The notes beneath the pieces were generated by a model. It did not search any database, was not told where the DNA came from, and saw only the letters and a program-made list of their open reading frames with translations. A program made the position numbers and the translations under genes. A stretch of 64,000 bases of DNA from the NCBI GenBank assembly GCA_050575255.1, contig JBNZDD010013603.1, positions 110,460 to 174,459 on the forward strand, given 5' to 3'. This document shows positions 1-47,100 of this stretch, piece after piece (the first letter of the stretch is position 1; each line of letters starts with the position of its first letter). The stretch is from Harriotta raleighana (lineage: Eukaryota).

Positions 1-1049
1 CCACTTCCATGACTATTTGTGGGACACTGGCTGTGAGCAATTTGGCTGCTGCGTTTCGCCCACAANCCTCTTTCTCCCCTAACCCACTTCCATGACTGTT
101 TGTGGGACACTGGCTGTGAGCAATTTGGCTGCTGCGTTTCGCCCACAAATATAGAATCCATGTTTCTACTTTCCTTCCCCTAACCGCTCCCCCTTGCTCT
201 GATCCCTACTTGACAGTACAGCGCCTTGGGACGTCCTTCCGACATGAAAGGCGCTATATAAATGTAATTTTGATTGATTATCAGACTTGTGGCGTAAGGA
301 AACTTGCCCAAGGTATCGCCCTGGCAAGAATCGAACTCAGGTCTCGTGCTTGTAAGGCGAGTGCTCTAACCACTGAGCTACAGGACTCCACACAGATATT
401 TACATTAGACCNATCAGACTTGCGGCGTAAGGAAACTTGCCCAAGGTATCGCCCTGGCAAGAATCGAACTCAGGTCTCGTGCTTGTAAGGCGAGTGCTCT
501 AACCACTGAGCTACAGCACTCCACACAGATATTTACATTAGACCATTAGAGTTTACATTACTTGTGAATTAATTAAACAGGTAAGATTGTGCAGATAGCC
601 TGCACTTGTGCAGTTTGCTCTGATAAGAATCATTAAGAAACCACAAAATTATACTTGTATAGCGCATTTCACGTCTAAAAAAACACAAGGTATCATAAAT
701 AAATGAGACAGACATAAATGAGACTCCCACCACCGAAAAACACAAATAATTGCTGAGTTAATGTGAATTATTCCTTATCGTGTGCAAATCTATGTGTCCT
801 GACAGCCCCAGCAGTGACAGTGACAGCAGTGAAGGCTGTGAATCTTCTCAGAAGACAAACTGCCGAAATGAAAGGCAAAAATCTTATTATTCCAATGGAA
901 CAAAATAAATATATTTAAAAAGTGGCTAAAACCACAGAAGAGAGAGGGGCGGGGGGGGGTCTGAGGCTTGTTCTTGTGCAGTTTGATCCCTGCTAATCCC
1001 AGGTTAGCTACACACCTGAGGCAGACAGACAGACAGACAGACAGACAGG

Positions 1050-1460
1050 CGAATGTACAAACCTTACCTTGGTTTTTTTTAAAAGAAAACTTAAGGTTTT
1101 GTTAAAAATAAAGTTGTGTGTCTTCTTTTTTTCTTCCCCAATTGTAAGTGACCTGTAGATCTCTCTGGAGCCAGCGCAGGGCAGGGAGCTGCTCACCTGT
1201 CAATCATCAGTCCCAGCTGGTGGGGGAGGGGCTGAGCCGAGCCGCCCATACTGCGCCTGCGCGGTATGCCAGTCAGCACACCTGTACCTGGCAGCTCTAC
1301 AGACAGACAGCAGTGAGCGCACAGCCTGTCGGTAGTTGTAGTCCAGCCCCCTTTCCCCCACACCCTCCAGTCAGTGACGCTCCCAGAGAAGCAGCGNGGG
1401 AAGCTTGGCGGACGGGACTTTCAATGGTCAACTACAGAGGATTAACCAGTTTAACTTCCC
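1050..1460. promoter_or_regulatory. GC-rich housekeeping-type promoter, possibly bidirectional
   Basis: ZNF143/SBS-like GGACTACAACTACCGACAGGC (- strand, 1344-1324); NRF1-like CTGCGCCTGCGC (1251-1262); TGACG half-CRE; strong - strand donor AAG|gtaagg at 1068/1067. Confidence 0.6.
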
Positions 1461-1824
1461 CCAAACTTACACCAACGCCCACTCTGGGCTTCCCCAAGCC
1501 TCAGCACTTGCCAACCTGCCAAAACACCCTGGAATTGGGTGAGAAGATTTCATGCCTCCAGGGAGAGATTTTGCTTTCTGTTACAGACACGGACGTTGCA
1601 CATGTCTGGTTTGGATACTGTTCAGCATGTTGATGACTTTCTGCATTATTCAGACTCCAAACTGAGCAAAAAAAAAGTTGAGCTGCACTTTACAATACAG
1701 CATAATGTTAATTTGTTAAAAGATCATGTTAAAGGTAACATACAATCACCAATTAAATATTTCCTTAGCTGATTCTACATATAAGATAAATTTTGCATCT
1801 CTTATTTACTGAAACTCTCCTCTC

Positions 1825-2390
1825 CCAGTTCTGTGATGAGTATTGTTTTGCGTGTATTATATGAATAGCCAGCGAAGAGCACTTAAGTCATAGAATCTTA
1901 CGGCACAAAAGGAGGCCATTCGGCCCATCGGGTATGTGCCGGCTCTTTAAAAAGAGCAATTTAATCCCACTCCTCAGCTCTCCCTATCACCTCGCAAGCC
2001 CGTCCTCCCCAAATAAATGTCTACCTCCCTTTTAAAAGTTGCTATCAAATCGGCCTCCACCACCTTTTCAGGTAATGCATTCCAGATTCGAACAACTCGT
2101 TGAGTGAAAATATTTCTCCTCACCTTCCTTCTTTTTGAAACTATTTTAAATCTATGACCACCAGTAGAAACAGTTTTTCCTTATTTACTCTGTCAAATCC
2201 CCTCATGACCTTAAAAACCTCTATTAAATCTCCTCGCAACCGTTTCTGTTCCAATAAGAATAAACCTAGCCTCCCTAACCTTTCTTCATAGCTATAGTCC
2301 CTCATTCCTGGTACCATCCTAGTAAATCTCCTCTGCACCCTTTCCAATGCCTAACATCCATGAGTAAATAGATTACTCTTGACAGCTTGG
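1825..2390 (+). pseudogene. SNORD45-like snoRNA copy split by a CR1 insertion
   Basis: CAGTTCTGTGATGAG...GCGTGTATTA at 1826-1860 and GATTACTCTTGACAGCTTGG at 2371-2390 flank a CR1 fragment. Confidence 0.5.
1887..2358 (-). mobile_element. CR1-type LINE 3' fragment
   Basis: ORF ERVQRRFTRMVPGMRDYSYEERLGRLGLF...RLRGDLIEVFK (CR1 ORF2 C-terminus) followed by a CR1-like 3' UTR/tail. Confidence 0.88.
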
Positions 2391-2629
2391 TATGTTCATG
2401 TAGCTTTCACTAAACCAATTTGCAGATTGATAACGCAGGCAGCAAACTGGTTTCCAATGAGGATATTCCCTGTGCTAATCGGTTTCCATCTCATAATATA
2501 ACTGAGTCCAAAAGGGAATATTAGGTTATATCAAGGCTGAGGTACAGGATTATTCTGTACTTTAAAGAGAGACCATTGTTAATGGTGTGGGAAGTTGTGC
2601 AGAAGATCTCAGGATCTGTTTCACTCATG

Positions 2630-2947
2630 ATGATAATAATCCTTGCATTTGATATAGCGCTTTTCACATCTTCCAGATATCCCAAAGCACTTCACAGAAT
2701 AACAATAACAACAAAATTACATTTGTACAGCTCCTTTCACGTCAGGAATTCACGTATAGTGAATTGACTATATATTTATGGGGCAAAACGCAGTAGTCAA
2801 TTGCGCACAGCAGTGTCCCACAAACAGTTGTAGATTGAAATGACCAATTTTTTGGGGGAAGGATTATTAGACGTGTGTGTGTATGGAGTAAAGTAACTTG
2901 CCCAAGCTTGTAAGGCGAGTGCTCTAACCACTGTGCTACAGGACTCC
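2630..2947 (-). mobile_element. tRNA-headed Deu-core SINE
   Basis: Head GGAGTCCTGTAGC.CAGTGGTTAGAGCACTCGCC, core GTGGGACACTGCTGTGCGCAATTG, (TTA)n tail. Confidence 0.85.
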
Positions 2948-3369
2948 ACAGAATATGAGAATGTCAGGGTATGTCAGGGTATTGTCACTGAATAGTGAGA
3001 ATATCTGATTATCAGTTCTGTTTTATTTCATCAAATGCTGACAAAATGTTTGTTGAAGTTTACGTTTGTTTTATATCTGCCTCCACAGTGAATACTTATG
3101 AGCTAATGGAGACTCGACTGACCGATAAGAAATGGACATTGCCAGGTGGAAACATACAAGGTTCGATATTGTAGTCACTGAAACTTAAGGCAGTTAAGTT
3201 TAACTTAACAAAGTTATCAAGCGAGGATTCACCATTTTGAAGAGTTCTCACAAATGTTTTAAACAATGTTGAGATTTAAGTGCAAAGTTAACTAGAGGTT
3301 TATTTGCACAAACTCAATGTTTTGTCAATTCTTGGAACTCTGTCCTCTTTCCCATCAACTAAACGTCCC

Positions 3370-3439
3370 AGTTCAATGATGAGCAATATTTCGCATGTAT
3401 TACCTGAACAGTCAGTGTTGAGACATTACTCTGAGAACT
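3370..3439 (+). ncRNA. Box C/D snoRNA, SNORD45-like (intact copy)
   Basis: Terminal stem AGTTC/GAACT; box C ATGATGA 3376-3382; D' CTGA 3404-3407; C' GTGTTGA; D CTGA 3431-3434; D' guide GCATGTATTA complementary to 18S UAAUACAUGC. Confidence 0.8.
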
Positions 3440-3906
3440 TGGCACATTTATATTTGTGGGATCAATTTGTCTGACCAGCAAATGTTTTGCAGTTAGCCTG
3501 TTTTCATTGCAACTAAAGTAATAAACAGACAATCCTGCACCCCAGTATATATGTATCTTAAGAAATGTTTTAGGGTTAAGCAGCCATATCCACTTTAGGG
3601 AATAGTAATTTGGTCAGAACATTATTTCTGTTGATCAATGATATTAATATTACAGAATCCATCAGTTCATGATAAAATACTTGCAATTGATACTTGCAAT
3701 TATAACATCAAATATTTTTGTAAAGTGCAGTGAATTTGTAGCTAGTTTGCAAACAGCAATACCCTACAATCCTCAAAAATAAATTTCAGCTGGAACATTA
3801 CTGGCAGGATGTTGATTTATTAAACAGTTGTGAGGGAGCCATTTACTGTTGTTATTGGGCTGGATGGGAAGCTGTTTCACATTTCACAACAATGAGAATG
3901 TCAGTA

Positions 3907-4283
3907 TGGTAAAACCCCGTTTATCCGGCACCCTTGGGGGTGGGGGGTGGGGTCAACTAACTGACTGCCAGATAAATGGGCGGCAAATTGCTGAAAACCC
4001 AACATTAAAAATTAACTTATTTAAAACATACCTTGTTAATAATAGGCTAAATAGTATCAGAATATTGTATAGATACTTACCATTGAAGCATTCCAGCACA
4101 GTCGGTAAAAAGATCGGTAAAAAAGCATTTTTTATCGATTGGTAAAAATCCAAGTTCGTAAATTTAATAAATGCGCACGCATGCGCAAAGTGAGCAAACT
4201 CGCGATTGCTGGAATGGAGAATTGCCCCAGGAGGGGGTCGAGCAATCCGGTTGATCGGGTCACAGATAAACGGGGTTTTACTG
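3907..4283. mobile_element. Non-autonomous Tc1/mariner (pogo/Tigger-like) MITE
   Basis: TIRs GTAAAACCCCGTTTATC / GATAAACGGGGTTTTACTG, flanked by TA. Confidence 0.85.
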
Positions 4284-5134
4284 TATATCACTGCAAAGTG
4301 AGACTATTTGACTATCACATCAGTATTGTGTTATGAAATGTACACAATAGTTCATTAAAGTTTGCCTTTGTTTTATATCTGTTTGCATAGTGAATACTAA
4401 TGAGATAATGGAGCCTCGCTTGACCACCAATGAACTACCAATGAAAACATGCAAGGTTAGTAATTGCAGTCACTGAAATTTAAGGCAGGAAAGACATTAA
4501 CTTTAGATGTGGAGTCCTGTAGTCGATTGGTTACAAAGGAGAGGGCTTGGGCTTGATCCAGTGCTTTGGGACGACCTCCCAACATGAAAGGCTCTACACA
4601 AATATAATTTTGTTGTTGTTGATTCACTGTCAGGGCAAAATGTTGGGCAAGTTTCATTGCTCTACACGCTTCTGTTTACCTAGCAATAAGTAGGAATCTA
4701 GTTTTTAGTTGATTGGCAGATCACCTATTGGGGGTAATAATTTTTTTTTAATTGTTTACTCAATTCCACAACGGTTTGTGAGAAATTTCTCTGTGCAATT
4801 GGCTTCTGCATTTCGACCAATAAATATACAGGCAATTCACTTCATAGTATGTTATGTGAAACATTTTCAGATGTCTGACAAATGTGATAAGGTGCAATAA
4901 CAAATACAAGGATTATTATAATTATTATTGCTGTGAGGCAAGAATGTGTCATTTTCAAGAGCTCACACAGATGTTGGGAATTAAATGATTAAAGCGTGTT
5001 AACTTGCACTGAATGTTTAATATTTACAACTGTAATTTATTTGGTAACTAGAGATGTAATTCTGTACAGGTTTATCTGTACCACTTCAATGTTTTGTCAA
5101 TTGTTGGAACTCTGTCCTCTTATCAACTAAAGTT

Positions 5135-5210
5135 CCAAGTTCAGTGATGAGCAATATTTCGCATGTATTACCTGAACAGTCAGTGTTGAGACATTACTCT
5201 GAGAACTTGG
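5135..5210 (+). ncRNA. Box C/D snoRNA, SNORD45-like (intact copy)
   Basis: 8-bp stem CCAAGTTC/GAACTTGG; box C GTGATGA 5144-5150; D' 5172-5175; C' GTGTTGA 5183-5189; D 5199-5202; same 18S guide. Confidence 0.82.
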
Positions 5211-7047
5211 CACGTTTATAATTTGCTGCATCAGTTTAGCAGCAAGTGTTTAAAATCTTCATTTGCTGATAGCTGTTTTGCAATGAAACTAAAGTAGTCA
5301 AAATAATGCATTGGTTTGTCAGACCATCCTGCACCTCAGTGCATATCTAATAAACTTTATAGGGTTAAGCACTGCAAACCAGTCCGTACTTTGGAAAATG
5401 GTGGAGTCTTGTAGTGCATTAGTTAAGAGTACTCACCTCGCAAGCAAAGGACCTTGGTTCAATTCCCAGCCAGGGTGAAACAGTGGGCAAGTTTCCTTAC
5501 TTGACACAGGCCCTGAAGTGAATTTTAACGCACATTCATACATATTAGGTAGTGCTGTGAATGTTTAGCCGTTCACAAATTTTCCATGGAATATTTTTGT
5601 TCCTGATCAGATCATGTTAATGTACAGCAGCAAAGAACTAACAGAAGGATACAGACACCACTTGTGACACTGGATACCTGCCCAAGGTTAATGATTTACA
5701 GACAGCTCTGGATTGAAGTGCAGAGTCCAGGATCATGAACAGGCTGTGGCTAGGAATGTGAAAGGTCAGTAATATTTTGTCAGTATTATCTGAACACCCA
5801 GAAACATATTACTGATCTTAATAATAATAATATTCCTTGTAGTTGATATAGCACTTTTCACGTCTTCTAGACGTCTCAAAGTGCTTCACAGAATACACTA
5901 AAGTGAATTGACTATATTTGTTTGCTAAACGCGGCAGCCAATTGCGCACAGCAGTGTTCCACAAACAGATATGGATTGAAATGACCAATTTGTTTTAGTA
6001 TATTCATGTATATTTTACAAATTAAATCAATAATCTAGACATGAAAATGATTTGTAATGAGGATATTGTCTGTGCTGATCAGTTTGCATGCTCATAAAGT
6101 AACTGAGCCCAATGGGGTACATTGGATTATACCCAAGATGAGGTACAGGATTACTCTGTACTTTGAAGAGAGGTCATTTCTTATTAAATGGGAAGTTGCC
6201 TTGAAGAATCCAGTGTCTGTTTCACACTTGATAACATGAGAATGTCAGTGTATCACTGAGAAGTGAGAATATTTCAGTATTGTTTCATGAAATGTAAACA
6301 ACATGTTCAACAAACTTTACATTTGTTTTATATCTGTTTGCAAAGTGAATACTAATGAGATAATGTGGACTAGACTGACTGAGAAGAAATCAATACTACT
6401 TGGTGAAAACATGCAAGGTTAGTAATTCCAGTCATGAAACTTAAGGCAGGAAGGACATTATCTTAAGGTGTGGAACCCTGCAGTCAATTAGAGCACCCAA
6501 TGAGAGGATCTGATTTCAATTCCTAGTTAGGGTGAAACATTAGACAACATTAGGCAACATTAGACAATTTAATCCACATGTCTGTTTGCCTAGCAGTATG
6601 TAGGAATCCGGTTATTAGTCAATTGGTAGATCGTTTATCCGCGGGTAAAAATCCCTATTTTTTTAAAAATCACTCAATCCACATCTGTTTGTGAGATACT
6701 GCTGTGCACAATTGGCATCTCCATATCGCCCATGAAAAATATAGTCAAATCACTTAACAGTATATTCTGTGAAACGCTTTGAGATGTTTCAAACGGGATC
6801 GGATGCTATATGAAAGAGGGATTATTATTTTTGCTGTCAATTGAGGATGCATCATTTTGAAAAGATCACACAAATTTTTTTTAAATATTCAGATGTAAGT
6901 GATTGTAGCATATTAACTTGCACTGAATGTTTAATATTTATAACTGTTGATTTATATGATAACTAGAGGTATAAATCTGTACAGGTTTATCTGTACCACA
7001 ATGTTTTGTCAATTGTTAAAATTCTGTCCTCCTTATCCCCAAAATGC

Positions 7048-7122
7048 CCAAGTTCAGTGATGAGCATTATTTTGCATATTTTACCTGGAGTCAATGTTGA
7101 GACATTACTCTTGAGAGCTTGG
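7048..7122 (+). pseudogene. Decayed SNORD45-like snoRNA copy
   Basis: Box C intact; guide mutated; D' CTGG; D CTTGA. Confidence 0.65.
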
Positions 7123-8449
7123 CATATTAATAATTTGCTGGATCAAATTAAACTTGTCTGAGCAGCGAATGTTTAAAATCTTTATTTGCCGATAACCTGT
7201 TTTACCATAATAATAATCCATGCATTTGATATACCACTTTTCACGTCTTCTAGACGTCTCAAAGCACTTCACAGAATATACTGTATTTATTTGTGGGTGA
7301 AAGGTGGCAGCCAATTGCGCACAGTCTTGGATTGAAACAATCAATTTATTATTGTTTCTATCAAGGGATTATTATCAGGCATGAGGAGCAAGGAAACATG
7401 CCTAAGGTTTCGCCCTGGCTGGAAATGAACCCAGGTCTCTCACTTGCGAGATGTGTGCTCTAACCAATGGGTTACAGAACTCCACAATAGAACTAGTCAA
7501 AATATGACACAGGTTTGACAAGACAATCCTGTACCCCAGCACAGGTCTAATAAACGTTTTAGGATTAAGCACTGCAAACCTATCTGTACTTTGGAGAATA
7601 GTGGAATCCTGTAGCGCATTAGTTAGATCACTCATCATTGCAAGTGAGAGAAATTTAGTTCGATTCCCATCCAGGATGAAACATTAAGCAAGTTTCTTTA
7701 CTTGATACATGCACTGAAGTGAATTTTAGCTAGATTATTGGAGGATGCTTTGTGACTTGTTAAACAGAGGAGGGAGACATTTATACATATTAAGTAGTGC
7801 ATTGAATGTTTTGCCGTTCCAAATGTTTGATTGGAATATTTTTGTTCCTGATCAGGTCATGCTAATTCACAGCAGCAAAGGACTAAATAATGCAGATAGA
7901 ATGTGAGACACTGAATGCCTACTCAAATGATGTACTCAATGTTTATGATTGATAAGACAGCTATGAATTGAAGTCTAAAATCATGAGCAAGCTGTGGCTA
8001 GGAGTGTCAATTCAAATGCAATGCAAGATATGGATTCTGAATTTTGAAATTCAATTTTTTAACCACAATTATCTGATAGGACTTGTGGTTGTAAATTTAT
8101 ATATTATCATTCATGTGGCATGATTCATGTCCACCACCATTGGCAGGTGGGCCTTCACCCTCTCTGCTCCTGAGCTCTAGCCTATTCTACACTTTGCTCC
8201 CCCACCTTGTCTCCAAGAATTATCTCAAGACTTCAACCGTGCAATCGATCACTCTCCTACCTCTCCTGATCCCAATCACCAACTCAGGTGAGGATGCCTG
8301 ACTGTTCAGTACCTTGGGACATCCTCCTGATATGATTCAGTCACTACGCCCCAAAATTCTGGAAATCCCTCCACCTCATCCCTAATCATTCAAATGCCAG
8401 ATCTTGCAGCCATGTGGAGTTGATATTCATGTAGCTTAATCTCCTAAGG

Positions 8450-8782
8450 AGAATCCTGCAGCTCAGTGATGAGAGCACGCGCCCTACAAGTGAGAGACCT
8501 GGATTTGAATCCAGGCAGAGCAAAACCTTGGGCAAGTTTTCTTACTCCACAAGCCTGATAATCTCAACAAAAATTGGTCATCTCAAAAAAAAACTTGGGT
8601 CATTTCAATCCACGACTGTTTATAGGACACTGCTGTGCACAATTGGCTGCCACGTTTAACCCACAAATAGTTAATTCACTTTACAGTATATTCTGTGAAA
8701 CACTGGGAATAATATAGTAGAATATAATATGAGAAGATGTGATAAGATGCTATATCAAATGTTATCAAATGAAAGGATTATT
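8450..8782 (+). mobile_element. tRNA-headed Deu-core SINE
   Basis: Full head-core-tail structure. Confidence 0.85.
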
Positions 8783-10233
8783 GTAAGTATCATTGATGAA
8801 TGCCACCTATCACATTGTGTTTCAATGTTAAGGGATTTTACAGCACTTCAAACAAGTTTTGATTCATCCATATGTAATTGTACAATAAAATCCATTCTCA
8901 ACAATAAAAATGCGTAACCTGAATTGTTCTGAGAAATCATTTCTGCTATCTAACTTATCACACAATGTTAAGTTATTGATGTCGGTTTGTAAGTCCAGAA
9001 AACCTACTCTGTGTATAGATTTTCAAAATATTTTTAGTTTATTAAACTACACATCAAAAGCAACTTTAAGATTAATAATGATATAACTACAATGCAATAA
9101 ATCCACTCTTATGGCTGCATGGCATGCTAGTCACATAACCAAATATCAATTGGGCAGTGAACTTTACTATCAGACATTCATATCAAATATGCCTAAGAAA
9201 ATTAGTTTCAAAATGTTACTTGTACCAATACAATAGATACAAATAGCTTATCTCTTGTGGTCACTTAATGAGCTTTTTTTAAAAAGCTAGTTTGTGCCAG
9301 GAAAGTGTTCTGTTTAACTTCACAGGATGTACATTTAATGCTGAGTGGCTGGGGAAAGATGAGCTGCAATAAAACTTAACACTTCTGTAATGGGGTTAAG
9401 GAGCACACTGAATTTAATCTGAATATTTATTTGTTCAAAAGTTACCTAGTTACATTAGTGTTTAACATGGGTGATAGGATACAGAGGACAGTTAAAAGAT
9501 TCACATAAAAATTGAAAGATGGACAATTTCAGATTATGATTAGTAACAATATTCCATTGAAGTGCATTAAATGAAATGTTTGCTTACATTAAAACTGAGA
9601 TGCAGAAAAACCTAGCCTTCAAGACAACTTTATTATAGTTAGTTTCATGAGAGGATAAAACACCAGCAGCAGATAGCAAAACAGCCCATTGCAATTTTTA
9701 AGCATCACTACTGAATCAATATTTGAGATGGCCCTTAAAAAAAAAGTCCAACCCCATGAAGTTCTATGTAGAGTTTCATGTTTGGGGTATTCAGGACACC
9801 AGTTGGATTCCCCCCAAAACATACTGAGAAATTCCACAACTGTTTATTTCAGCTAGGTTGGTAACATGGAACTCAGGAGACCAAAGCTGAGTTTGCAGAA
9901 TGTGGTTTCTGCTCATAATCAATATCCAAAGAACCTTGTGATGACTTACAGACATGAGAGGATGGGATCTGATTCAGCTGAATCCTCTCCAAAGTCTGAC
10001 AATCACCTGCTTGAGGCATTTGCACCACTTTCAGTGAGAACCAGATATTCACTGAAAGGGCAAAAAAAAAAGGGGGAGGGCAGGAGTTTGAACTCATTAC
10101 ATTATTCTTTAATTTTCAAATCCCAAGTCAGTAAGTTTGCTCAGCAGCACATTCATATCTCAATATAATAAAGTAATTTATAGTTTGTGCAAGAAGTCTA
10201 TTTTAAGGCACAATCAAATGCTCTGTTAGTGAG

Positions 10234-10387
10234 CTAGCATTTGCTCTCTTTCACAGCTTCAATCACTGGACACAGATTAGCTGCATCAAATGAGGTTGGG
10301 TGCCACGTCTTCAGGTCTATTAGAGCCTGATTTAACTTTTCCATCCACAAGTTTCTTTCTTCGATTGTATCAGCAGACAGCCAGTTC
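10234..10387 (-). CDS. ANLN: Anillin terminal coding exon ([20 protein letters not shown]...KESKC*)
   Basis: End of PH domain; TAG at 10236-10234. Confidence 0.95.
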
Positions 10388-13300
10388 CTGTGTAAAAATA
10401 TACAAGTTCAAGATTAAACCAATGCACGGTTTCTTCTTTTATCCATTATACTTACTTGTCATAAATGGCTTTTGTGAGAAAACCACCACACATGAAGGCA
10501 GAGACTAAAATCCATTGTTTGCTACATTATTTAAAATTAGATGATCAACTGACTTCAACAATCAAGTCAGGGGAGCGGGAAATGTAAGATTCCCACTCAA
10601 ATTGAGATTCAGTGCCCCCTGCTGGAAAGTGCAGGTACTTCTGCAGTAATTGCAGAACTTGTTTTGAATAAAAACATGTTAAGTCTTTGCAAAAGGTTTA
10701 TTTTAATTAATAGCAAAATTACTAAACAGATTTTCAGGCTAGGATTTACTACCCCCATTTTGCAAAATGGCAATGATGATTTTAAAGCTTTTTTTTTTGG
10801 GGGGGGGGGGGGAGGGGGGGAGGGATGTACACTCTGTTTAAAATGAGATAATATACATCCTCCGCATCCCCTCCCTCCCTCCCATCCCCTCCCCTCACCA
10901 ATATTACANTTTCCTGAAGAGTATCCAAACCAAAACAGTTCCAAGCATCTCACCTGTACATCAAAAGATATTTATTGGAATGGAATGTACACTCTGGAGG
11001 GACACATCCATCTTACCCAATTCCACAAAGTATTAAGTTCGGGTTGGCAAAATGCAATGGTTGGGCACCCGATAATGGAGGTTAGGCACGAACCAGCTCA
11101 AAGCCAGTTCAGCTCCAGCACTTCCATGTATTTCACTAGTTCCAATATTTCAACTTTTAAGAGACAAGTTGCTCAGATCAGAGGGCAAGATCTACATTTG
11201 ACTTGATCTATATTTTATACATTCCCTTCCCATCCAGCCATCTACAAGACTCACTTGGTAAAGCAGAGGCCATTTCTGCACTGAACAATGAGGGTTTCAT
11301 GGTCATCTTTAGACTGTGGCCGAGCTGTAATCAACTCCAACGTTTTTGGTCGAGAGCAGAACTCACGGCTGGCAGGTTCAATCTGGTCATTGGTACAGTT
11401 GGTCAGATTAATTAAACCTACAGGCACCTGAGCAAAATAGAGGATTAGGATAACAGAACTGCAGCAAACATCTATATACAATATAACTCATTAATTATGT
11501 ATCAAATATCATTGCAATAACTTGTAACACACACACACACACAAGTTCTGTAGCTCAGTGGTTAGAGCACTCGCCTTGCAAGCGAGAGACCTGGGAAGTT
11601 TCCTTACTCCACATGCCTGATAATTCCTCAAGAAAAAAAATTAAAATAACTTGGTCATTTCAATCCATGACTGTTTGTAGGACACTTCTGTGTGTAATTG
11701 GCTGCCCTGTTTCACCCACAAATAATCAATTCAATTTAGAGTATATTGTTTGAGACATCTAGAAGATATGAAAAGTGCTATATGAAATGCAAAGATTATT
11801 ATTCAAGCTCCCACCCAAATTTTTAAAATAAAAATCCTTTGGCCAACAGTTTAAAAGAAGCCATACCATCAAGACCTCTGCAGTCAAACAGCTTGTAACC
11901 TTGTTGACTATATGACTATTATCATTGCACTGGATCAAATGGCAACTCCCACCTCACAAATAAAATTAAGTCAATTGCACCTTTAACTTCTCTTCATCTG
12001 GATACATCCAATAGGAAAGATTGTTCCCAGACAGGACAAACCAACGACGATGCCAGGCACCATATCCACTGACATCTTCAAACATAGTCTGTGAAAAAAT
12101 AGGCAATCAGAGCAAAGATAGGATCAAAGTAACAGTTCTACAAATATAACTGACACACAACATTTTACTTTATCATACAGCATTAAATTGGGATCACTAG
12201 ATACAGAGCTTCCTATCTAGGATGGGTGCATTTTTAATCAGTGGTAGTGAATATGTACTTTATTGATGAAGTAATCACTAAATAATTCAAGTCAATTACC
12301 AGAAATCCAGAGTGCTCCACAGTGGAATGCATCCGACACTCGAGTTTCAAGTAGATATTGCCTTCCAGAGGAGATAAGAATGGAACCTGAAGCAAGGTCA
12401 GTCAAAAAACAATGCAGCAGTGATTGTGGAGATCATTTATCCCTTCACATCAGTCCACAGTGAAGCTTGTTACCGATATTTGAAACACTCAATAAAGCAA
12501 TTCATCCTGGTTATATTTACTTTCTGAAGACTGAGTGAAGGAAAGTGGGATTGACCTTGTAACACAGCCCAATATTGAATTTGTGCTGCGTAGATATCAA
12601 GACAAAAACCTAAATGAAGAGCATTTAACATTCAGATGAATCTACTGTGCAGCAATAACTGGCAATTTATTGGCAGAACATATACTCCAATAATGCCGGT
12701 GATCTATTACTTTGCTAGATTATTACTTCTACAGCACAAGCATTAAGCTGCTGCAAGTTTCCTGGAAACTAAAGATAAAAGCCATGCAAGAAAACCAAGC
12801 TAGCTGTACACAAGCTACTACACTGCACAATAAAAGCAGTAGTTTGGACTAGAGAATAGTTTATTGGATAATACAATCAACGGATCATATACCACAGCAG
12901 CAGATTGCAAGTGATAGCCATGGAATTAAACAGTTGAATAGGTCTCTCTGCAGCATAGCATTCACTAGGCAGCCATTCCATTGCAGTCCATGAAATGACA
13001 ATTAGGAAATAAAGATTAAGGGAACAATCGGCATCTGATCATATTCCATGGAGGCATATCAGCAACAAAATACTTCTAGTCCCAAACTAGGCAGGAAAAC
13101 TTCAGTTAGTTATACACATTGGTATTAGTTACTATAGTAACCTTGTCCTGAAACTCATCTCCAAGTAGTTGCCTGACTTTTCCATCAAACTTCATCTACA
13201 GTGAAACAAAACAGGTATAGTTAATTGTAACATTTACAATATAAACTTCTATCTTTAGAATGGTCTTCCTGTATTGTGATCAGGAGCCGTGCTAACCAGA

Positions 13301-22300: not shown

Positions 22301-25300
22301 TCGTACAGATGTGATGAATGCTTGGATGAGAGTTTCAGAGGCCTGTGGTGCGAGGCAGTGGCAGAGCCGGGTGATGTTGCAGAGGTGGGGGAAAGCAGAG
22401 CAGATCATGGCACGGCTGTGGGGTAAAGACAATTGAGGTTAAATAACATGCCAAAGTTCTAGACTGGTTTGGTGACATGGGGTGTGTATCCCTGGATGGG
22501 ATGCTGTCAGCGCTTGAGGTGTGGAGGCACTGATGGGAGTCAATCAGGATGGCCTCGGATTTGTTGGTGTTGAACCATAGAAAGTTAGCTCTCATCCAGG
22601 ACTTGATATTTGACAGGCATTCTGTCAGGAAAGCAGTTGTCCTGGAGTCAAGGGTGAAGACAGATAAGACTTGGGGTGTCATTACACATAATGTAAATGT
22701 GTTGCTATATTAAACCAGTCTGTCCCTCTGTCACTCTTCAACTCAATCTCTCGAGAAAGCAATGATTCAAAGAGCCTCATTTTCATATACATATGGATAA
22801 GAGTGGAGGATTTGAGACTTCAGAGATTATCCCTTCTCTAGGACTGAAGATAAGCTAATTGAAAAAGATAAAATCATTCCTTAACAGCCAAACACCCAAC
22901 ATGATGCATTAATGAAGCTCTTCCATTACGAATCGAGGCTGGTCTCTTACCTGTAAAACGGTTCAATTTCCGAGATTGTTGGAGGAATGGAAGCTACTGC
23001 TTTCTTCTCCTCTTCAGGAGCACCCGATTTTAGCGATACAAAGAGTGAGCAGGGGGAGTCAGTTAGCTTGTTTAATGAGGACAGTACTTCACCCTATAAA
23101 TAAAAATAAAAACTTTAAAGACAAGCATCCCCAAAATTTGTGACGACTGTTACAGAATGTGAGGAATCCAATTAAAAGTCAAGTATCATTGATTGGGAAT
23201 TCAGGGTACAAAAGCAAACACAGACAAAACTCATCGTAATAATCGAATGGTTTAAGGACATAGAAGCTCATCCAAAGGGAAACAAAGGGTTGTGCCCAGA
23301 TTGGAAGGAGATGAACTTGGAACTCGAAAATGTGTTCTAGCTCAAATGAACACAGGATCAACAAAAAATACATCAACAAAATTACACTTGTATAGTATAG
23401 CGCCTTTCACATCAGGCAGAAGCCAACTAAATAAATTCATGGCCTGCTTGACTTGGTCCATTCAATTTTCTCCTTTCAGGAAATCCAGATGATACAGGAG
23501 GTTAAAAGTAGGAAGGAAATCTTCCTCAGTTTCAAACCTTCAATGCTTCAAAACGTCACCATAGGGGTGGTGTGGGAACCAAAGAAAACAAGCTCTGTGG
23601 AAGTGTCAGTCACACACTTCTCTAGGAGCTCCAGAGCTGCTCGGAAACTGGCTGGTAAAAAGGAGGATGCAAAGTCCATTCTATTTGTATGAACAGTTTA
23701 TAAATCATTTGGCCAATTGATATCTAACTATATATTATACATCACTTATATTTTAGGCATTATCAAATTACATCAGAACACAGTGCATATAGAACATACC
23801 TTAGTGCCAGAGATCTCAATTTTAAACATGTATGTTTATTTATAGTGTCAAAGTGGAGGTTCAGTCAACAAGAACTGATTACAAGTACTCACCAGAGGTG
23901 TTTCAGGGTCCATGTTGGCAGTGGAGACAAGTGGAGACAAAGATGTATGGGGAAGAGAAGGTCCATTTGCCTCCTCTGGATGTTTTGCCTCTAATTTCAG
24001 CTCCACCTTTTCATCCTCACTTTGTTCCACAGCCTTAGGCTTTAGTGAAACCAATTCTGCTCCCTCCTGATCCTCAGTCTTTGCTTCCTCCACTTTCATT
24101 GCTTTTTCTTTCTCAGCATTTCCTTCCTCCATTTTCATTACTTCCTCCTCAGCCCTTTTTTCCTCCACCTTTACTGCCTCTTCCTCCTCTTCTTCCTCCA
24201 TTGCTTTGAACACACCCTCGAATAGTTTATCGATGATTTCTGAGTTATTCAACGTTTCTTGTGAGCTGGACTCAATATCTGACATAGGAGCAACAATTAA
24301 TCAGCATTCTGGATATGCACACTTAATGACCAAAAGAATCCACTGATGTATCCCTTCCATTTTACTCTTGTCCCTTTTTAACCCAATAGCACATACTATG
24401 CTTAGTTTTACCATCAGTGGATAGAGCATATTCTTCTTGCATGAAACCAGGCAGTGGTTAACTGTACACCAAAACCACCTAGAAATTCCAGACTGATCTG
24501 GTCCACACATACCTAGCGACAGTTTTAATATAATATTTAGGGCCACAGATTCTAAATTGATTTCCCCTTCTAACACACAAAGGATCAGGCCAATTCCGCG
24601 CCCCCACCCCCCCACAAAAGCCCCAGCTAATCTCCAAACCAGCACGGGCCAGAATCAAACCCAGCAACTTCCTACCCTGTGTAACTCACGAGAAATGAAG
24701 CCTAGGGATGTACTGTGGTTAGCAAGGAGGTGGGGTAGATCCACAACAAGGGGATCGGATGCAGAGAAGCAGAGAAAAAGCCACAAAGGCGGTTAGTTAA
24801 TTATATTCAGGGACTGAAGCTCAACCCACCCTGCTCTTAAACACTGGAATTAATGTGCTGCTTTATTACATCCAAAGATCACATAACACTTCATCTTTTT
24901 GAAGACTCATGATTTATGCAGGCACGAAAGGTAGCTGATCTGCACTTCCCATAAATCTCTATAGTAGTGCTTCTTCCGTTCAAAAAAAAAAACACCTATT
25001 TGTATTTTGAACTATCTTATAAAGGACATGAGTTTCCATACCAGTCTCATTGATGTACTCATTCTCACTTTCAGTTTCTACATATTCGAGAGATGGAATG
25101 GTTGATGATTCTAACGCAAAAGTCACCTTTCTGACAGGAGTAGACCAAGTCAGAGGCTCCTCTCCTTTGAAATCATCTGAGTTCAGGAGAAAACAGGACA
25201 CTTAAAGGGCTGCCCATCACAAGCAACCAGACAGATCATTAGAAATCCATTAAGTTTTCTGCCTGACAATAAATGCAACACTGTAAAATATTAAACATAC

Positions 25301-38900: not shown

Positions 38901-41900
38901 GATGGGTGTCTCTCTCTCTCTCTCTGCTTCACCCGTGGAGGACCAGTGAACGCTTTGTTTTGATGAGGGGAAGCTCACAGGATCATAAAGGAAACAAGCA
39001 TGAAATGTATTTCCCCTTGTTTAAAAGTATTTTCTCTCTCTTTCTGCTAATATCACTTGCATTTGATATGGCACTTTTCACGTCTTCTAAACATCTCAAA
39101 ACGTTTCACATAATATACAGTAAAGTGAATTGACTGTATATTTGTGGGTGAACTGTGGCAGCCAATTGCACACAACAGTGTCTCATAAACAGTCGTGGAT
39201 TGAAATGACCACTTTTTTGTATTGAGGGATTATTATCCGGCAGGTGGATTAAGGTAACTTGCCCAAGGTTTCACACTGCCAAGAACTGAACCCAGGTCTC
39301 CCATTGGTGCTGTTGAGCTTGCTTCTCACCAATCTATTGTACCTCTTGCTCTTACTCAGTCTAGTGGGTGAGTAGATAGACTAGAGTCAGGTCTAGCCAA
39401 TCCTATTCTGATGACCAGATGCTTGGGATTGCCAAATTTCAACTGAGCGTCTCCAGAAGGTTTAGTGGGTACAGTAGCACAGGCAATGTCCACCCTTCTC
39501 ACAACATGTCCAAGGGTCATTCCTTCATGTGTAAAGTGTGAATGCTGAGTGTCAGCAGTCTACGGATACCATGGGCAGGCATCACTGTCAAACCATATAT
39601 TGTCCTTGCCTGACATTCACGCACACATACTTTCTATAAGGAGTGAGTGGACAGCAATCGGGATCTATTTGCTGTTTGTTATCCCCCTCATTCTATAATA
39701 CAGGGAGTAATGAAGTCAACAAAGAAGTCAAGCAGAGTTTACACAAATCAGTCAGTACTTTGAGTAATTATGAAGATCACCATAATGGGAAGAGGTTCAG
39801 TTGAATGCTCGACTGATACAGATCAAACCACATTACAATCATCTCCATCATTCTATCAAAGAGTTTATTCAGAAGCTGATTTTGATTTTGTATCAGGCAG
39901 CTGAGAGAAAACACGAGGAGCAGTCTTACATGATGCAAAGTGGCATCAGCTCAGGGATTGTGCACTTATTCAAATAATTCACACAGGACCACTTGCGAGA
40001 CCCCATTCAAACAAGTAATGATTATACATACAGTCCAAGGCAAAACTGATTATGAGTCAATGGTCTTAAGCCTAAAACCATGAGCCTCAGAGCTCAATTC
40101 AGGAGGCACAATTTTGCCACATATCAAGAACTACATTCAGGAATGAATGTAATTCTAATACAGTCTAATAGAGAGAAATTAATAGTTTAGAATTATTTAC
40201 ACGCAGGGGATGCCTGCAAGATTAAAGATTGGGAAAGAAGATGAGACAAATCAAGCAGAGTGAGAGGATAACGACAAGTGTGGGATTTTAAGTGAGTCGG
40301 AGGAAATAAATTCAGAATTGGTTGGTTAGCAGTCAGTGCAATAAGTCTCAATTGAGTTATAATATCCAACCCAATCCACTCATCACAATGAGGATACAAG
40401 GCTAAGGATTGGTGGATAGAGTTATAACTATAATGTTATTTATGAAATACAGAAACATAAGAAAGGTTGCAATGGCTGAAATGAGGTCACAAAAGTGTTT
40501 ATTACCAGTCTGAGGACCTCATTGTTCTGAAATTTTACTGTGCCACCGAATACTACTTGGAGAGGCAAAAACAGGGTGTCTCACTTTGCTGAAAAGGTTA
40601 ACCCAACCTCTGTCAACGGTTGTTTGTATGCAGAATAAGCAATGAGGAGAGAGCGATTGATCTATCAATGACGTGAAATTGGGAGAGGCAACAACATGAG
40701 ACATTCCCATAGCTTCCATCCTCATCGAGCCTCACGACACAGGAGCACGGTAATGCTCAGACTAACAAGGTTCTAGCAGTAAAGCTTCTCCACTATGTGC
40801 TCAGAACATCAATGTAATTCCTGTTTGTTTATTCCTCAATGGTATCAAAAGAGACAGTTATGCAATTCACTGTAAGAATGTTGAAAACCCTGCATTGAAT
40901 GTCCTCAGGTTGTATACGTACGTCCTCAGGAGGTATTTACAGGGTGAAACAGGCCTGAAAGCATCTCCTATTAGGAACACATAGGCAGGGTGAAACCTTG
41001 AGCAAGTTTCCTTATGCCACACGCCTAATAATAATCCCTCAAGAAAACTATAATAAATTCATCATTTCAATCCACGACTGTTTTTGGGCCACTGCTGAGC
41101 ACAATTGGCTGCGTTTCGCCCACAAATATACAGTCAATTCACTTTACAGTATATTTTGTGAAGCACTTTGAGACATCTAGAAGATGTGAAAAGTGTTATA
41201 TCAAATGCAAGGATTATTATTATCATTATTATTATACTAACCCATGTGCTGAAGGTCAATCAATTCTGGCCAGCAGCATATGGAAACACTACACCCTCTC
41301 TCTATGGATATCTCTCAGTCGCCTCACAAACCACTGGAGGACACAAGATGCAGTCTCATCAATCTCAAGCTACAAGCAATTTTCTATGTACTCTGCTGCA
41401 CAGCAGTTATACATTAACCAGCAGCTTGTTTTTCTATCCTAATGTAAAGGCATCTGGGTACCTTTGCTTTGCAAACTCCCAGCTGGGAGTATAATAATGC
41501 TTTTATGCTGATGTCATTGTGTTGGCTTTTGCAACCTGGTCTTGAATGACACTGGATATGATGTGATTGTGATGGATTGCTTGGGGAGGGCTCCGCACAG
41601 TTGGAATTGATTTGGGGTCAAATTAGACCATGACTGGTGAAACAGAAGCCCGATTGCTTTATGAATGCCATTATGAATGCTTTATGAATGCAAGATTAGA
41701 TTACAATCTTCACATAACTATTTCCTGTTAGTTTAGGGAATTTTAGCGCTTAAAATGTGATTTACGGAGCTGTGTGAGCAGGGGTCCAGAGTGCATGCAC
41801 GAGCAAGGCTTCTGGATTATAGTCTTCAACTGCTGGTTAGCAACATACAGGAAAAAAAACTGACCGTGAATTGACTATATTTTGTGAGTTAAACCCAGCA

Positions 41901-43500
41901 GCCGAATGCACACAGCAGTGTCCTGCGAACAATCACAATTGAGTGACCACTTTTTTTTCTTTGAGGGATTATTACAAGCGCAAAGCAATCCACCAATCAA
42001 CTAACAACCAGGTTCCTGGTGATACAAGATATACTGTGAGCAAAGGTCTTTGTATTCCTGGGAGAGTTCCAGCGTCTTACTCAGTAAGACTGCAGACTGT
42101 TTATTGAATTGGGACTGAGGAATAAGTTACTGTATATTCTGAAGATGGCTTGCACAGCTGATTGGATTTTAAAAAATAATTCATAATAATTTGGTCACTC
42201 AAACCATGACTGTTTGTGGGACAGTACTGTAAAGCAATTGATTGCATTGATTCACCCACAAAATACACAGTCTTCACAGTATATTCTTTATAGTATATAA
42301 TTTACAGTATATTCTGTGAACTGCTTTGAGACATGATAAGGTGCTATAACATATGCAAGGATTATTATTCTTACTATTGTTAATAATAATCCTTGCATTT
42401 GATATACCGCTTTTCACATCTTATCGACGTCCCAAAAGCGCTTTATAGAATATACTATAAAGTGAATTACTGTATATATGTGGGTGGAATGCGGCAGCCT
42501 ATTGCGCACAGCAGAGTCCCACAAACAGTCATGCATTGAAATGACCAATTTTATTATTGTGTTTTTTTTTGGAGGGATTATTATTAGGTGTGTGGAGAAG
42601 GAAACTTGCCCAAGGTTTTGCCCTGATCTGCCTGGATTCAAACACAGGTCTCACACTTGTAAGGAGAGTGCTCTAACCACTGAGCCACAGGAGCTCCTCA
42701 TTATTCTTCTTATTACTGTATTATTATTACACTGCGTCCATGACTTCTGGTACAGAAAGTTCTGTCAAACGCTCCAAGACACTACCCCGCATGAAGGGCA
42801 CTGTATAAAAATGCAAGTTGTTGTTGTTGTTATTCTGCTCAGTGTCACTGGGAAATGAGATTGAACACTAATTGGACTGAATACTGAGGCGAGATTGTAT
42901 TGTTCAGCTGGTGGGACAGCAGCCGTGAAATATGATTCTTCCCTCAGTCCGTTCCAACCCAACCGTGATATGAAACCGAGCAGCTGTTACCAGCTCCTAA
43001 CAAATGCTAAGCATTACCAAGACAACCAGAGCAAAATCTGCCATGCCATCACCACACCAGGACAAATATGCACCTAATAGTCTTTTTATTAACTTTTCTC
43101 CCTTGTCCCTGTCAGCTTGGCTTTGTGTTGGTCACCCTGGTGTCTGATAAATGCAGAAACTCATCAGGACTTTGAAGAGAATCCAAATAGTGTAACCCCC
43201 ACCATAGCCATAGGAACCAGCCAGACTAGTTGGTAGAGAGAAACTTAGGAGTAAAAGCAATTGAATGTACACAATGTGTGAATATTCTCACAAAGATTTG
43301 TGAGTGTAGAACACATACACATTCTCATACCCCTGAGGAAATATTCATGCTAACTCAGAAAGCCATAGATACAGAATTACTTTCAATTTTAACATAGCTC
43401 CTACAATCATCGGTGTAGCTGGGACAGTTAATAAGACGACAAGTCAGAAATGGATTGAAATGGTGAGCAAATTATCAACCCAACATCCAACAAATTACAT

Positions 43501-43820
43501 GGAGTCCTGTAGCTCAGTGGTTAGAGCACTCACCTTACAAGCGTGAGATCTGTGTTCGAATCCAGGAAAGTCAGTGCGAAACCTTGGGCAAGTTTCCTTA
43601 CTCCACACACCTAATAATAATCCCTCCAAAAAAACACAATAATAAAATTGGTCATATTCAATCGATGACCGTGTGTTGTACAATCGGCAATTGGCTGCCG
43701 CATTTTTCCCACAAATATACAGTCAATTCACTTTACAGTACATTCTATGAAGCGCTTTGAGACGTCTAGAAGCCGTAAAAAACACTATATCAAACGCAAA
43801 GGTTCTCATTATTATTATTA
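43501..43820 (+). mobile_element. tRNA-headed Deu-core SINE (full length; duplicate at ~47091-47410)
   Basis: GGAGTCCTGTAGCTCAGTGGTTAGAGC...GTTCGAATCC head, core, tail. Confidence 0.9.
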
Positions 43821-43829
43821 CCATTGTAA

Positions 43830-44155
43830 AACTGCTTTCACATCAGGAGGATGTCCCAAGGGGCTGGACAGTCAGAGATCCACACCCGATGTGGAGATTG
43901 GGATCAGAAAGGGTAGAGGGCGAGGAGGCATGGTCGAAGAAAAGCGAAGAGGAGCCTGTTGAGTGGAGGGAGTGGACAGTTTGAAAGGGGATTAGGAGGC
44001 CACAGAGGTGGGGAGGAATGAACCCGATGGAGGGAGTTGAAGGTGAGGACCAGGATCTTGACCTGTAGCCTCTGAGTGATGGGGAACCAGAGGAGCCTGG
44101 CGAGACTGGGGGTGATGGGGTCGCGGAAACGGGTGCGCAAGAGGGTATGGGCAGA
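43830..44155 (-). mobile_element. L2 fragment (duplicated at ~47420-47745)
   Basis: ITPSLARLLWFPITQR...KILVLTF motif. Confidence 0.75.
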
Positions 44156-47100
44156 GTTACACAGAGTGTAACAACATGATAATAATAATAATCCTTACAT
44201 TTGACATACTGTATTGTCTTTCACGTCTGGAGCATACAAAGCGTTTCACGGAATTGTACTGTGACGGCAGTGACTGGTGTCATTTTGGCATTCTCACCTG
44301 CTCAAAGAAGTTCTCTAGTTTAAATAAAACCTGACAGAATACAAAATGCCTGGTGATAGATTTNTTGAATGTCCTCAGGTTGTATACGTACGTCCTCAGG
44401 AGGTATTTACAGGGTGAAACAGGCCTGAAAGCATCTCCTATTAGGAACACATAGGCAGGGTGAAACCTTGAGCAAGTTTCCTTATGCCACACGCCTAATA
44501 ATAATCCCTCAAGAAAACTATAATAAATTCATCATTTCAATCCACGACTGCTTTTGGGCCACTGCTGAGCACAATTGGCTGCGTTTCGCCCACAAATATA
44601 CAGTCAATTCACTTTACAGTATATTTTGTGAAGCACTTTGAGACATCTAGAAGATGTGAAAAGTGTTATATCAAATGCAAGGATTATTATTATCATTATT
44701 ATTATACTAACCCATGTGCTGAAGGTCAATCAATTCTGGCCAGCAGCATATGGAAACACTACACCCTCTCTCTATGGATATCTCTCAGTCGCCTCACAAA
44801 CCACTGGAGGACACAAGAAGCAGTCTCATCAATCTCAAGATACAAGCAATTTTCTATGTACTCTGCTGCACAGCAGTTATACATTAACCAGCAGCTTGTT
44901 TTTCTATCCTAATGTAAAGGCATCTGGGTACCTTTGCTTTGCAAACTCCCAGCTGGGAGTATAATAATGCTTTTATGCTGATGTCATTGTGTTGGCTTTT
45001 GCAACCTGGTCTTGAATGACACTGGATATGATGTGATTGTGATGGATTGCTTGGGGAGGGCTCCGCACAGTTGGAATTGATTTGGGGTCAAATTAGACCA
45101 TGACTGGTGAAACAGAAGCCCGATTGCTTTATGAATGCCATTATGAATGCTTTATGAATGCAAGATTAGATTACAATCTTCACATAACTATTTCCTGTTA
45201 GTTTAGGGAATTTTAGCGCTTAAAATGTGATTTACGGAGCTGTGTGAGCAGGGGTCCAGAGTGCATGCACGAGCAAGGCTTCTGGATTATAGTCTTCAAC
45301 TGCTGGTTAGCAACATACAGGAAAAAAAACTGACCGTGAATTGACTATATTTTGTGAGTTAAACCCAGCAGCCGAATGCACACAGCAGTGACCTGCAAAC
45401 AATCACAATTGAGTGACCACTTTTTTTTCTTTGAGGGATTATTACAAGCGCAAAGCAATCCACCAATCAACTAACAACCAGGTTTCTGGTGATACAAGAT
45501 ATACTGTGAGCAAAGGTCTTTGTATTCCTGGGAGAGTTCCAGCGTCTTACTCAGTAAGACTGCAGACTGTTTATTGAATTGGGACTGAGGAATAAGTTAC
45601 TGTATATTCTGAAGATGGCTTGCACAGCTGATTGGATTTTAAAAAATAATTCATAATAATTTGGTCACTCAAACCATGACTGTTTGTGGGACAGTACTGT
45701 AAAGCAATTGATTGCATTGATTCACCCACAAAATACACAGTCTTCACAGTATATTCTTTATAGTATATAATTTACAGTATATTCTGTGAACTGCTTTGAG
45801 ACATGATAAGGTGCTATAACATATGCAAGGATTATTATTCTTACTATTGTTAATAATAATCCTTGCATTTGATATACCGCTTTTCACATCTTATCGACGT
45901 CCCAAAAGCGCTTTATAGAATATACTATAAAGTGAATTACTGTATATTTGTGGGTGGAATGCGGCAGCCAATTGCGCACAGCAGAGTCCCACAAACAGTC
46001 ATGCATTGAAATGACCAATTTTATTATTGTGGTTTTTTTTGGACGGATTATTATTAGGTGTGTGGAGAAGGAAACTTGCCCAAGGTTTTGCCCTGATCTG
46101 CCTGGATTCAAACACAGGTCTCACGCTTGTAAGGAGAGTGCTCTAACCACTGAGCCACAGGAGCTCCTCATTATTCTTCTTATTACTGTATTATTATTAC
46201 ACTGCGCCCATGACTTCTGGTACAGAAAGTTCTGTCAAACGCTCCAAGACACTACCCCGCATGAAGGGCACTGTATAAAAATGCAAGTTGTTGTTGTTGT
46301 TATTCTGCTCAGTGTCACTGGGAAATGAGATTGAACACTCATTGGACTGAATACTGAGGCGAGATTGTATTGTTCAGCTGGTGGGACAGCAGCCGTGAAA
46401 TATGATTCTTCCCTCAGTCCGTTCCAACCCAACCGTGATATGAAACCGAGCAGCTGTTACCAGCTCCTAACAAATGCTAAGCATTACCAAGACAACCAGA
46501 GCAAAATCTGCCATGCCATCACCACACCAGGACAAATATGCACCTAATAGTCTTTTTATTAACTTTTCTCCCTTGTCCCTGTCAGCTTGGCTTTGTGTTG
46601 GTCACCCTGGTGTCTGATAAATGCAGAAACTCATCAGGACTTTGAAGAGAATCCAAATAGTGTAACCCCCACCATAGCCATAGGAACCAGCCAGACTAGT
46701 TGGTAGAGAGAAACTTAGGAGTAAAAGCAATTGAATGTACACAATGTGTGAATATTCTCACAAAGATTTGTGAGTGTAGAACATATACACATTCTCATAC
46801 CCCTGAGGAAATATTCATGCTAACTCAGAAAGCCATAGATACAGAATTACTTTCAATTTTAACATAGCTCCTACAATCATCGGTGCAGCTGGGACAGTTA
46901 ATAAGACGACAAGTCAGAAATGGATTGAAATGGTGAGCAAATTATCAACCCACTAAAAAAGTAGCTGTATTAGGAAGCTCCAATGTACAGTACTATGAAA
47001 CGTAACATGTAATGCGGCAGTGTCGTTGGACTGACTGACCATTACTGAAAATACACGGAAATTACCTCTACAACATCCAACAAATTACATGGAGTCCTGT

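Follow-up and report, generated by a model that had tools for sequence, protein, structure and literature searches.

Within a 64-kb window of the Harriotta raleighana genome (the 64,000 nucleotides (nt) of contig JBNZDD010013603.1, positions 110,460 to 174,459, that were analysed as a whole), we identified an array of box C/D small nucleolar RNA (snoRNA) copies of the SNORD45 type. The array lies on the + strand, and all positions below are coordinates of the window. Most probably, it represents a spliced, probably non-coding host with intronic SNORD45-type copies, produced by an old tandem duplication and with two of the copies kept. The architecture of the array, the number of copies, their decay and conservation, the identity of the guide and its complementarity to the target in other vertebrates are all shown by sequence comparison.

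The scheme that we propose begins with an ancestral unit of two exons and two snoRNAs (A, snoRNA, B, snoRNA), which would have been duplicated about 3.5 times long ago. Three copies would then have decayed through point changes and mobile-element insertions, and two would have been retained. Splicing would free the two kept copies from their introns, and the C/D core proteins would then bind them; through the 10-nt guide before box D', each would pair with 18S ribosomal RNA (rRNA) and target U172 (human numbering) for 2'-O-methylation, U172 being the base opposite the fifth nucleotide upstream of D'. On the box D side, most of the guide for A159 is gone, and that side can fold back on the bases after box C. 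For H. raleighana itself, we infer transcription, splicing, non-coding status, assembly of the small nucleolar ribonucleoprotein (snoRNP) and methylation.

Five snoRNA copies in a decayed tandem array

The array holds five box C/D snoRNA copies, two intact (c2 and c3) and three decayed (c1, c4 and c5). Measured across its terminal stem, c2 spans 3371-3438, with box C at 3376-3382, the U172 guide at 3393-3402, D' at 3404-3407, C' at 3415-3421 and box D at 3431-3434. In c3, which spans 5139-5206, the same elements occur at 5144-5150, 5161-5170, 5172-5175, 5183-5189 and 5199-5202. D' is perfect in both, C' is one change away from the box C consensus, and folds show a longer stem. Box C (RUGAUGA) and box D (CUGA) joined by a perfect 4-bp terminal stem were found at only two sites in the window, namely c2 and c3, and no shuffled sequence contained two such sites (0/100; mean 0.03). 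By their boxes, internal D' and C' elements and terminal stem, c2 and c3 are predicted box C/D snoRNAs. A loose C...D pattern was uninformative, with 15 matches in the whole window, a shuffle mean of 9.0 and 3 of 100 shuffles reaching 15, and folding compared with shuffles set neither copy apart (z 0.26 for c2, -1.8 for c3).

A search model built from c2, c3 and c5 returned 30 matches up to E 10. After the three copies themselves, the best were at 1823-1884 (E 4e-9), 5764-5801 (E 0.008) and 2368-2397 (E 0.04), with the next at E 0.37; from these we recognize a first copy, c1, split by an insert, and a fifth copy, c4. The 5' half of c1 (1828-1886) has an intact box C, one guide change and an altered D', and its 3' half (2368-2397) has a box D broken by one extra T. 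The score of this 3' half against c5 was reached by 0/300 shuffles and that against c3 by 1/300. In c4 (5764-5819), box C and C' are lost, the guide is altered and a short interspersed element (SINE) is inserted at the 3' end; c5 (7052-7118) has two guide changes, an altered D' and a box D broken by one extra T. The original prediction had located four snoRNAs correctly, overlooking the copy at 5764-5819 and the splitting of the copy at 1826.

The extra T in box D is the same in c1 (2372-2390) and c5 (7104-7121) despite their different unit positions, which may reflect exchange between copies or parallel change. The region of c4 (5762-5821) folds into a stable hairpin (z -4.1, 1/200 shuffles), an extended version of the internal stem seen in c2 and c3. 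As a microRNA, c4 was rejected: its best Rfam match is SNORD45, and microRNA models reach only 13-17 bits where their cut-offs are 52-130. A candidate sixth copy at 7990-8250, after the last exon-like block, was rejected as well, with 154 of 300 shuffles scoring equally.

The snoRNA-bearing repeat occurs in four copies at spacings of 1543, 1768 and 1913, and long paralogous blocks are 70-78% identical (for example 4671-5292 with 6581-7216, and 5292-5762 with 7491-8010), much as the degenerate repeat was first described. That description assumed one snoRNA per unit, which no longer fits best. An intronic block, X, follows c1 (X1, 2444-2631) and c4 (X2, 6044-6232; 76% over 189 nt), and c2, c3 and c5 each come after an exon-like block of type B; the ancestral unit would therefore have been A exon, snoRNA, X, B exon, snoRNA. 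The array is best described as this two-snoRNA, two-exon-type unit tandemly repeated about 3.5 times, with the stretch from A to X deleted in the second unit. Whereas the SINEs recur in 9001-64000, no counterpart of the exon blocks, X blocks or snoRNAs was found there; the search covered this window, and nothing in it suggests that the unit is dispersed.

Paralogous blocks differ at 108/451, 67/294 and 59/229 sites (23-26%; Jukes-Cantor 0.27-0.32), and unit-to-unit identity outside the snoRNA and one acceptor is at most about 75-82%. This divergence points to an old burst followed by decay and not to the continuing amplification that had been suggested. At the SINE rate given in section 8 of PMC5499810 (1.0-1.1 x 10^-3 per site per million years), hand arithmetic places the divergence of the array at roughly 125-160 million years, a crude date because the other rate in that paper is six times slower.

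Against this background, the two intact copies stand out. From box C to box D they agree at 58/59 positions, and with the stem at 70/71, the sole C-to-D difference being the box C purine, where either purine is allowed. Their flanks agree at 168/205 positions (Fisher p 1e-4 against the 70/71), so that the original prediction of intact copies differing only at this purine within diverged flanks is borne out. Differences near the RNA occur only at 3364, 3365, 3369, 3376 and 3446. The c3 and c5 units have two SINE insertions in common that the c2 unit lacks, which makes c3 closer kin to c5 than to c2, despite matching c2. Purifying selection is the simplest reading of the identity between c2 and c3.

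A SNORD45-type guide to 18S U172

The top Rfam match of c2 is SNORD45 (RF00279; 28.2 bits, E 0.033 across 4227 families), and the alignment keeps guide and D' in register. Unlike the alignments to other families, that to the SNORD45 model falls on the 10-nt guide before D'. Independently of c2, SNORD45 also ranks first among 14 Rfam matches in 5700-5900, over c4 (20.2 bits, E 0.11); the 5' half of c1 alone gave two Rfam matches, neither of them SNORD45. In human, SNORD45A/B are listed as guides for U172 and SNORD45A/C for A159 (PMC11550049). The zebrafish guide to U172 of the small subunit, as given in supplement 4 of PMC7668251, has the identical 10 bases and forms 10/10 pairs after one mismatch, and the complement of the guide is found in a chicken 18S primer reported in PMC8790660; the U172 target sequence used here comes from these two species. 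The fifth base before D' is an A facing U172, in keeping with the D+5 rule. By eye, the 17 bases ending in D' (3391-3407) recur unchanged in zebrafish SNORD45, there ending in D, an identity that exceeds what the duplex and box require by three bases. Also by eye, the last 16 nt of c2 and c3 match chicken SNORD45 GGgCD5a (PMC2653536, supplement) at 15/16 positions, and the first 14 nt of c1 match it at 13/14.

Between C' and D, c2 and c3 are about 10 nt short, seen as a 10-nt gap in the Rfam alignment. The second guide, to 18S A159, is lost here, with five box-proximal bases left, and the remaining bases on this side can pair with bases after box C (6/8 pairs). Short complements of the box D side occur in the zebrafish supplements only within host-gene DNA; these supplements do not contain the known U172 target as running text either, which leaves the comparison uninformative.

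Several observations weigh against the assignment. Comparison with Rfam, the check put forward by the original prediction, was answered only in part: SNORD45 comes out on top below threshold at 28.2 bits, and none of the eight matches that reach the gathering score in the window is a C/D snoRNA family. The SNORD45 scores of c2, c3 and c4 (28.2, 25.9 and 20.2) all lie below the 42 bits that RF00279 requires at its gathering threshold; scores of 21-26 bits are also reached by other C/D families, which align on the boxes, and on c3 SNORD121A comes first at 26.1 bits with SNORD45 second at 25.9. In Xenopus, according to the supplement of PMC6984369, SNORD45 is not expressed and neither U172 nor A159 is modified, so the site is dispensable in some vertebrates. 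The RNA agrees with SNORD45 in its guide and layout; it departs from it in Rfam score, in its second guide and in its host, which in human and chicken is RABGGTB. On balance, we classify it as SNORD45-type, a predicted rRNA guide of a known kind and neither an orphan nor the novel snoRNA first envisaged.

The probable host gene and its possible origins

From the sequence, we infer a spliced, probably non-coding + strand host. A candidate upstream exon at 1587-1734 has a donor after 1734 (7/9 consensus) and an acceptor at 1587 or 1654 (or 1723), the first two with 11/15 and 10/15 pyrimidines; 1605-1675 is a low-copy repeat fragment, and the exon from 1654 to 1734 shares a match of only 12 nt with block A, reached in 5/300 shuffles. 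Three exon-like blocks of type B are bounded by AG and GT: B1 (3089-3160, 72 nt, donor 6/9), B2 (4391-4455, 65 nt, with a 7-nt deletion) and B3 (6346-6417, 72 nt, acceptor AAG). Block A2 (5611-5686) has a donor after 5686 (7/9) that leaves c4 intronic, and an alternative donor after 5764 (8/9 consensus) that overlaps the first bases of c4. Block A3 (7856-8010) has an intact acceptor, lacks the paralogous donor and is a candidate start of the last exon. The three 72-, 65- and 72-nt blocks at 3089, 4391 and 6346 and the acceptors at 5611 and 7856 stand as first reported; the block at 7856 has no GT at the end once given to it, and the 5764/5765 donor formerly paired with the acceptor at 5611 coincides with the start of c4.

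Splicing from the 5686 donor would separate all five copies by predicted exons, each in an intron of its own. The acceptor window of block A is identical at 24/25 positions, compared with 227/294 in the intron (p 0.016). Five of the proposed acceptors are among the 17 strong acceptor-like sites in 1000-9000; those at 1654 and 6346 are not. A pyrimidine tract followed by AG is also present at the 5' end of c1 (1808-1829) and of c2 (3345-3371) and, if used, would make the snoRNA exonic. The site at 1829 belongs to the same 17, and the tract upstream of c2 and c3 is identical at 19/20 positions (3330-3349).

Upstream of the array, a GC-rich, promoter-like stretch at 1200-1450 (GC 0.59), possibly bidirectional, contains 12 CpG per 300 nt against a window median of 4, a count reached by 5.9% of windows. 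A TCT-like start motif, as we take it to be, lies at 1349, one of two in 1100-1720; hosts of the GAS5/SNHG type have a housekeeping promoter with a 5' TOP start. On the - strand, a strong donor at 1067 may mark a non-coding first exon (1067-1300) of a gene running off the left edge.

Other features of the region speak against such a host. The splice windows of the B exons show no extra conservation (27/34 vs 74/105 in the intron, p 0.22). In 1000-9000, 26 GT sites score at least 7/9, like most of the proposed donors, and donors alone therefore prove little. The distances from c2 and c3 to the next proposed acceptor, 950 and 402 nt, far exceed the usual 60-90 nt between snoRNA and acceptor, and snoRNP assembly would then depend on the terminal stem. 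The CpG observed/expected ratio of the 1200-1450 stretch (0.41-0.46) is below CpG island level, and that stretch may serve the - strand gene also, or only.

As to where the host came from, one possibility, which we consider rather unlikely though the best of the alternatives, is that the 5' part of RABGGTB was duplicated, amplified in tandem and left to decay, losing its frame and keeping its introns for the snoRNA. This proposal concerns origin and is compatible with the spliced host described above. Two features suggest it: chicken and human SNORD45 lie in introns 1 and 2 of RABGGTB, paralleling a two-snoRNA unit with an exon between, and c1 without its insert is longer on the box D side, with a C' like that of chicken GGgCD5a (6/7, by eye). 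Both ends of block B may also resemble RABGGTB exon sequence, a likeness noticed post hoc. However, we found no match in PDB at E up to 10, with the three + frames of 1450-8400 or with B1 alone, no Pfam family in any of the six frames of 1-9000, and no match in protein searches with six frames of the array, although a RABGGTB structure should, we assume, be in the PDB set; such searches are weak for short decayed exons. The neighbours, anillin and a KIAA0895-family gene, do not favour this origin either. The fuller version, in which the RABGGTB 5' part was copied beside a bidirectional promoter and amplified, lost its frame and one guide and kept its U172 guide for more than 100 million years, is a shade more doubtful still. 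The idea of a RABGGTB-born host draws on architecture and gains no support from the protein searches.

The whole array might instead be dead and untranscribed, the likeness of c2 and c3 being due to recent short gene conversion; we think this improbable. Gene conversion would also give what is seen across the RNA, where the whole 71 nt is conserved, including spacers without known constraint, and may be the cause; about 16 spacer positions are unchanged, which has a probability, by hand, of 0.82^16 or ~0.04. The common extra T of c1 and c5 hints at exchange between copies, and the B splice windows lack extra conservation. Nevertheless, the terminal stem bounds the identical tract on either side, and the lone difference within it falls at the permissive box C purine. 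Four boxes, stem and guide are still perfect despite the 23-26% divergence of neighbouring blocks, and we take this to mean that selection acted on one copy or both until recently.

Comparably improbable is a U172 guide RNA that arose independently of SNORD45 and resembles it through boxes and guide only. The sub-threshold Rfam score would fit, and the zebrafish RNA has the same guide at box D and in another host, so the guide moved or re-arose at least once. An internal stem (6/8 pairs) would account for the 3' motif, which also matches SNORD64. But the position of the guide before D', both termini and the box D-proximal part of the A159 guide match chicken SNORD45.

We also doubt, somewhat more strongly, that the host encodes a protein of about 108 residues, starting from an ATG at 1602 and running through B1, B2 and A2. 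The longest ATG frames in four splice models are 58, 62, 62 and 108 codons. The first claim that there is no continuous frame therefore holds for the exon set on which it was made (58 codons) and fails in one of the four models, that with the 1587 acceptor, which gives the open 108-codon frame (1602-5666 spliced; shuffle P 0.007). Because the B blocks are paralogous, this P value overstates the coding case. In this frame none of the three B blocks contains a stop; if A2 is spliced from the 5686 donor, one stop codon intervenes before reading continues in B3. On the other hand, B2 has its 7-nt deletion and there is no synonymous bias, B1 and B3 differing at 5/5/6 sites over the codon positions, with three synonymous and nine non-synonymous codons. 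No homologue was found among proteins of 57-184 residues, with 0 in 1.84 billion representatives and 0 in PDB. The stop precedes two further junctions, and a stop upstream of junctions is the usual mark of decay-bound host transcripts.

Least of all do we credit an orphan array of the SNORD115/116 kind that is still amplifying, the comparison first drawn: whole exon-intron-snoRNA units are duplicated here too, but the RNA has a canonical rRNA guide, three of the five copies are dead, and the units are about equally and deeply diverged.

Setting and relation to known systems

Mobile elements mark the array at several levels. The insert that splits c1 (1887-2360, - strand, ~475 nt) has a translation resembling the 3' end of what we take to be a CR1-type long interspersed element (LINE); its only matches in an atlas search were unnamed eukaryotic clusters, at 0.95 and with low recognition. 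A DNA-transposon-like insert with terminal inverted repeats (3909-4285) is missing at the paralogous site before B3. A tRNA-headed SINE on the + strand (4508-4930) has a position common to the SINE after B3, with none after B1, and a + strand SINE head (5392-5512) has a position common to 7598-7702, with none after c2. At the gathering threshold, all eight Rfam matches in the 64-kb window are tRNA-like SINE heads, and the many tRNA-headed repeats fit the Callorhinchus milii SINEs of PMC5499810 by description, not by consensus alignment.

The array is tail to tail with anillin, whose exons run on the - strand from ~34.1 kb down to a stop at 10234. The exon at 11254-11427 (- strand) is 95% identical to C. 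milii anillin and 72-86% identical to anillin-like proteins of sharks and rays, and the matches to its translation are 24/24 anillins by Pfam; these identities make a holocephalan the most likely source. Head to head with anillin, at 57.9 kb, is a KIAA0895-family gene named via a PDB match; the neighbours may be ANLN and MATCAP2, or paralogues of these. Between the two genes, a tandem duplication of ~3.5 kb at 40895-50529 (99.4% identity), with a third partial copy adjoining an N gap, could be recent or could be an assembly artefact. Within the anillin gene, a glutamate-rich 150-codon frame on the - strand (23851-24300) has no Pfam match and is possibly a lineage-specific exon. A LINE reverse-transcriptase fragment (Pfam RVT_1, E 1e-9) lies at 53498-54133 on the - strand, with a relative near 22.2-22.7 kb.

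Among known systems, SNORD45 (U45A/B/C; RF00279; chicken GGgCD5a/b) is like the array in its 10-nt U172 guide before D', box layout, terminal bases and paralogues in successive introns. The array RNA differs in being ~10 nt shorter between C' and D, in having lost the A159 guide and in a host not recognizable as RABGGTB, the SNORD45 host in human and chicken (PMC8393311; PMC2653536). Zebrafish SNORD45, placed in si:dkey-239h2.3 by supplement 4 of PMC7668251, resembles it in guide, target duplex, single-guide form and location outside RABGGTB; unlike the array, its guide precedes box D, not D', and that host is named in one supplement row. Zebrafish A159 is reported there as not methylated. The zebrafish gene FP101887, with SNORD52/202, is described in sections 10 and 12 of PMC7668251 as an apparently non-coding, poorly annotated host whose introns carry many paralogues of a single rRNA guide RNA, one of the guides being degenerate in some of them. 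It has nine related copies, all expressed and of another family, whereas the array, known from sequence alone, has three of five decayed; by analogy, we regard FP101887 as a direct precedent. GAS5 and other non-coding hosts, as treated in PMC2653536, are similar in their exons of less than 100 nt, stop-ridden frames, snoRNAs as the most conserved part and paralogues from intragenic duplication. GAS5, however, carries many different snoRNAs, and the array one family with homologous exons. SNORD115/116 in SNHG14 likewise form tandem exon-intron-snoRNA repeats in a non-coding host, but are orphan, imprinted, expressed in neurons and mammalian, with 29 and 48 copies, compared with five copies and an rRNA target here.

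The literature already describes duplication in cis, host switching, loss through transposon insertion and copy numbers that are higher outside placental mammals (PMC2653536, and Makarova and Kramerov 2009 as cited). The processes involved are none of them new, and the arrangement is known from other vertebrates. C/D snoRNA identity, duplication of exon-intron-snoRNA units and birth and death of copies, the core of the original prediction, are upheld. A literature search, mostly outside subscription journals, found no report of a chondrichthyan SNORD45, and the accessible text of PMC3349704 and PMC13736004 mentions neither SNORD45 nor sharks.

The array adds a cartilaginous-fish data point for SNORD45, whose host and guide box vary, from RABGGTB in human and chicken to another host in zebrafish and an unexpressed RNA in Xenopus. 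It suggests that the box D' guide layout is old and indicates that the Rfam cut-off misses SNORD45-type copies such as these. The locus is an example of snoRNA birth and death with dated mobile-element layers, and it predicts that U172 is methylated. It would matter more if the host descends from RABGGTB. In that case, it would be a frozen record of a non-coding snoRNA host arising from a protein-coding one, and D'-type SNORD45 would predate the split of cartilaginous and bony vertebrates.

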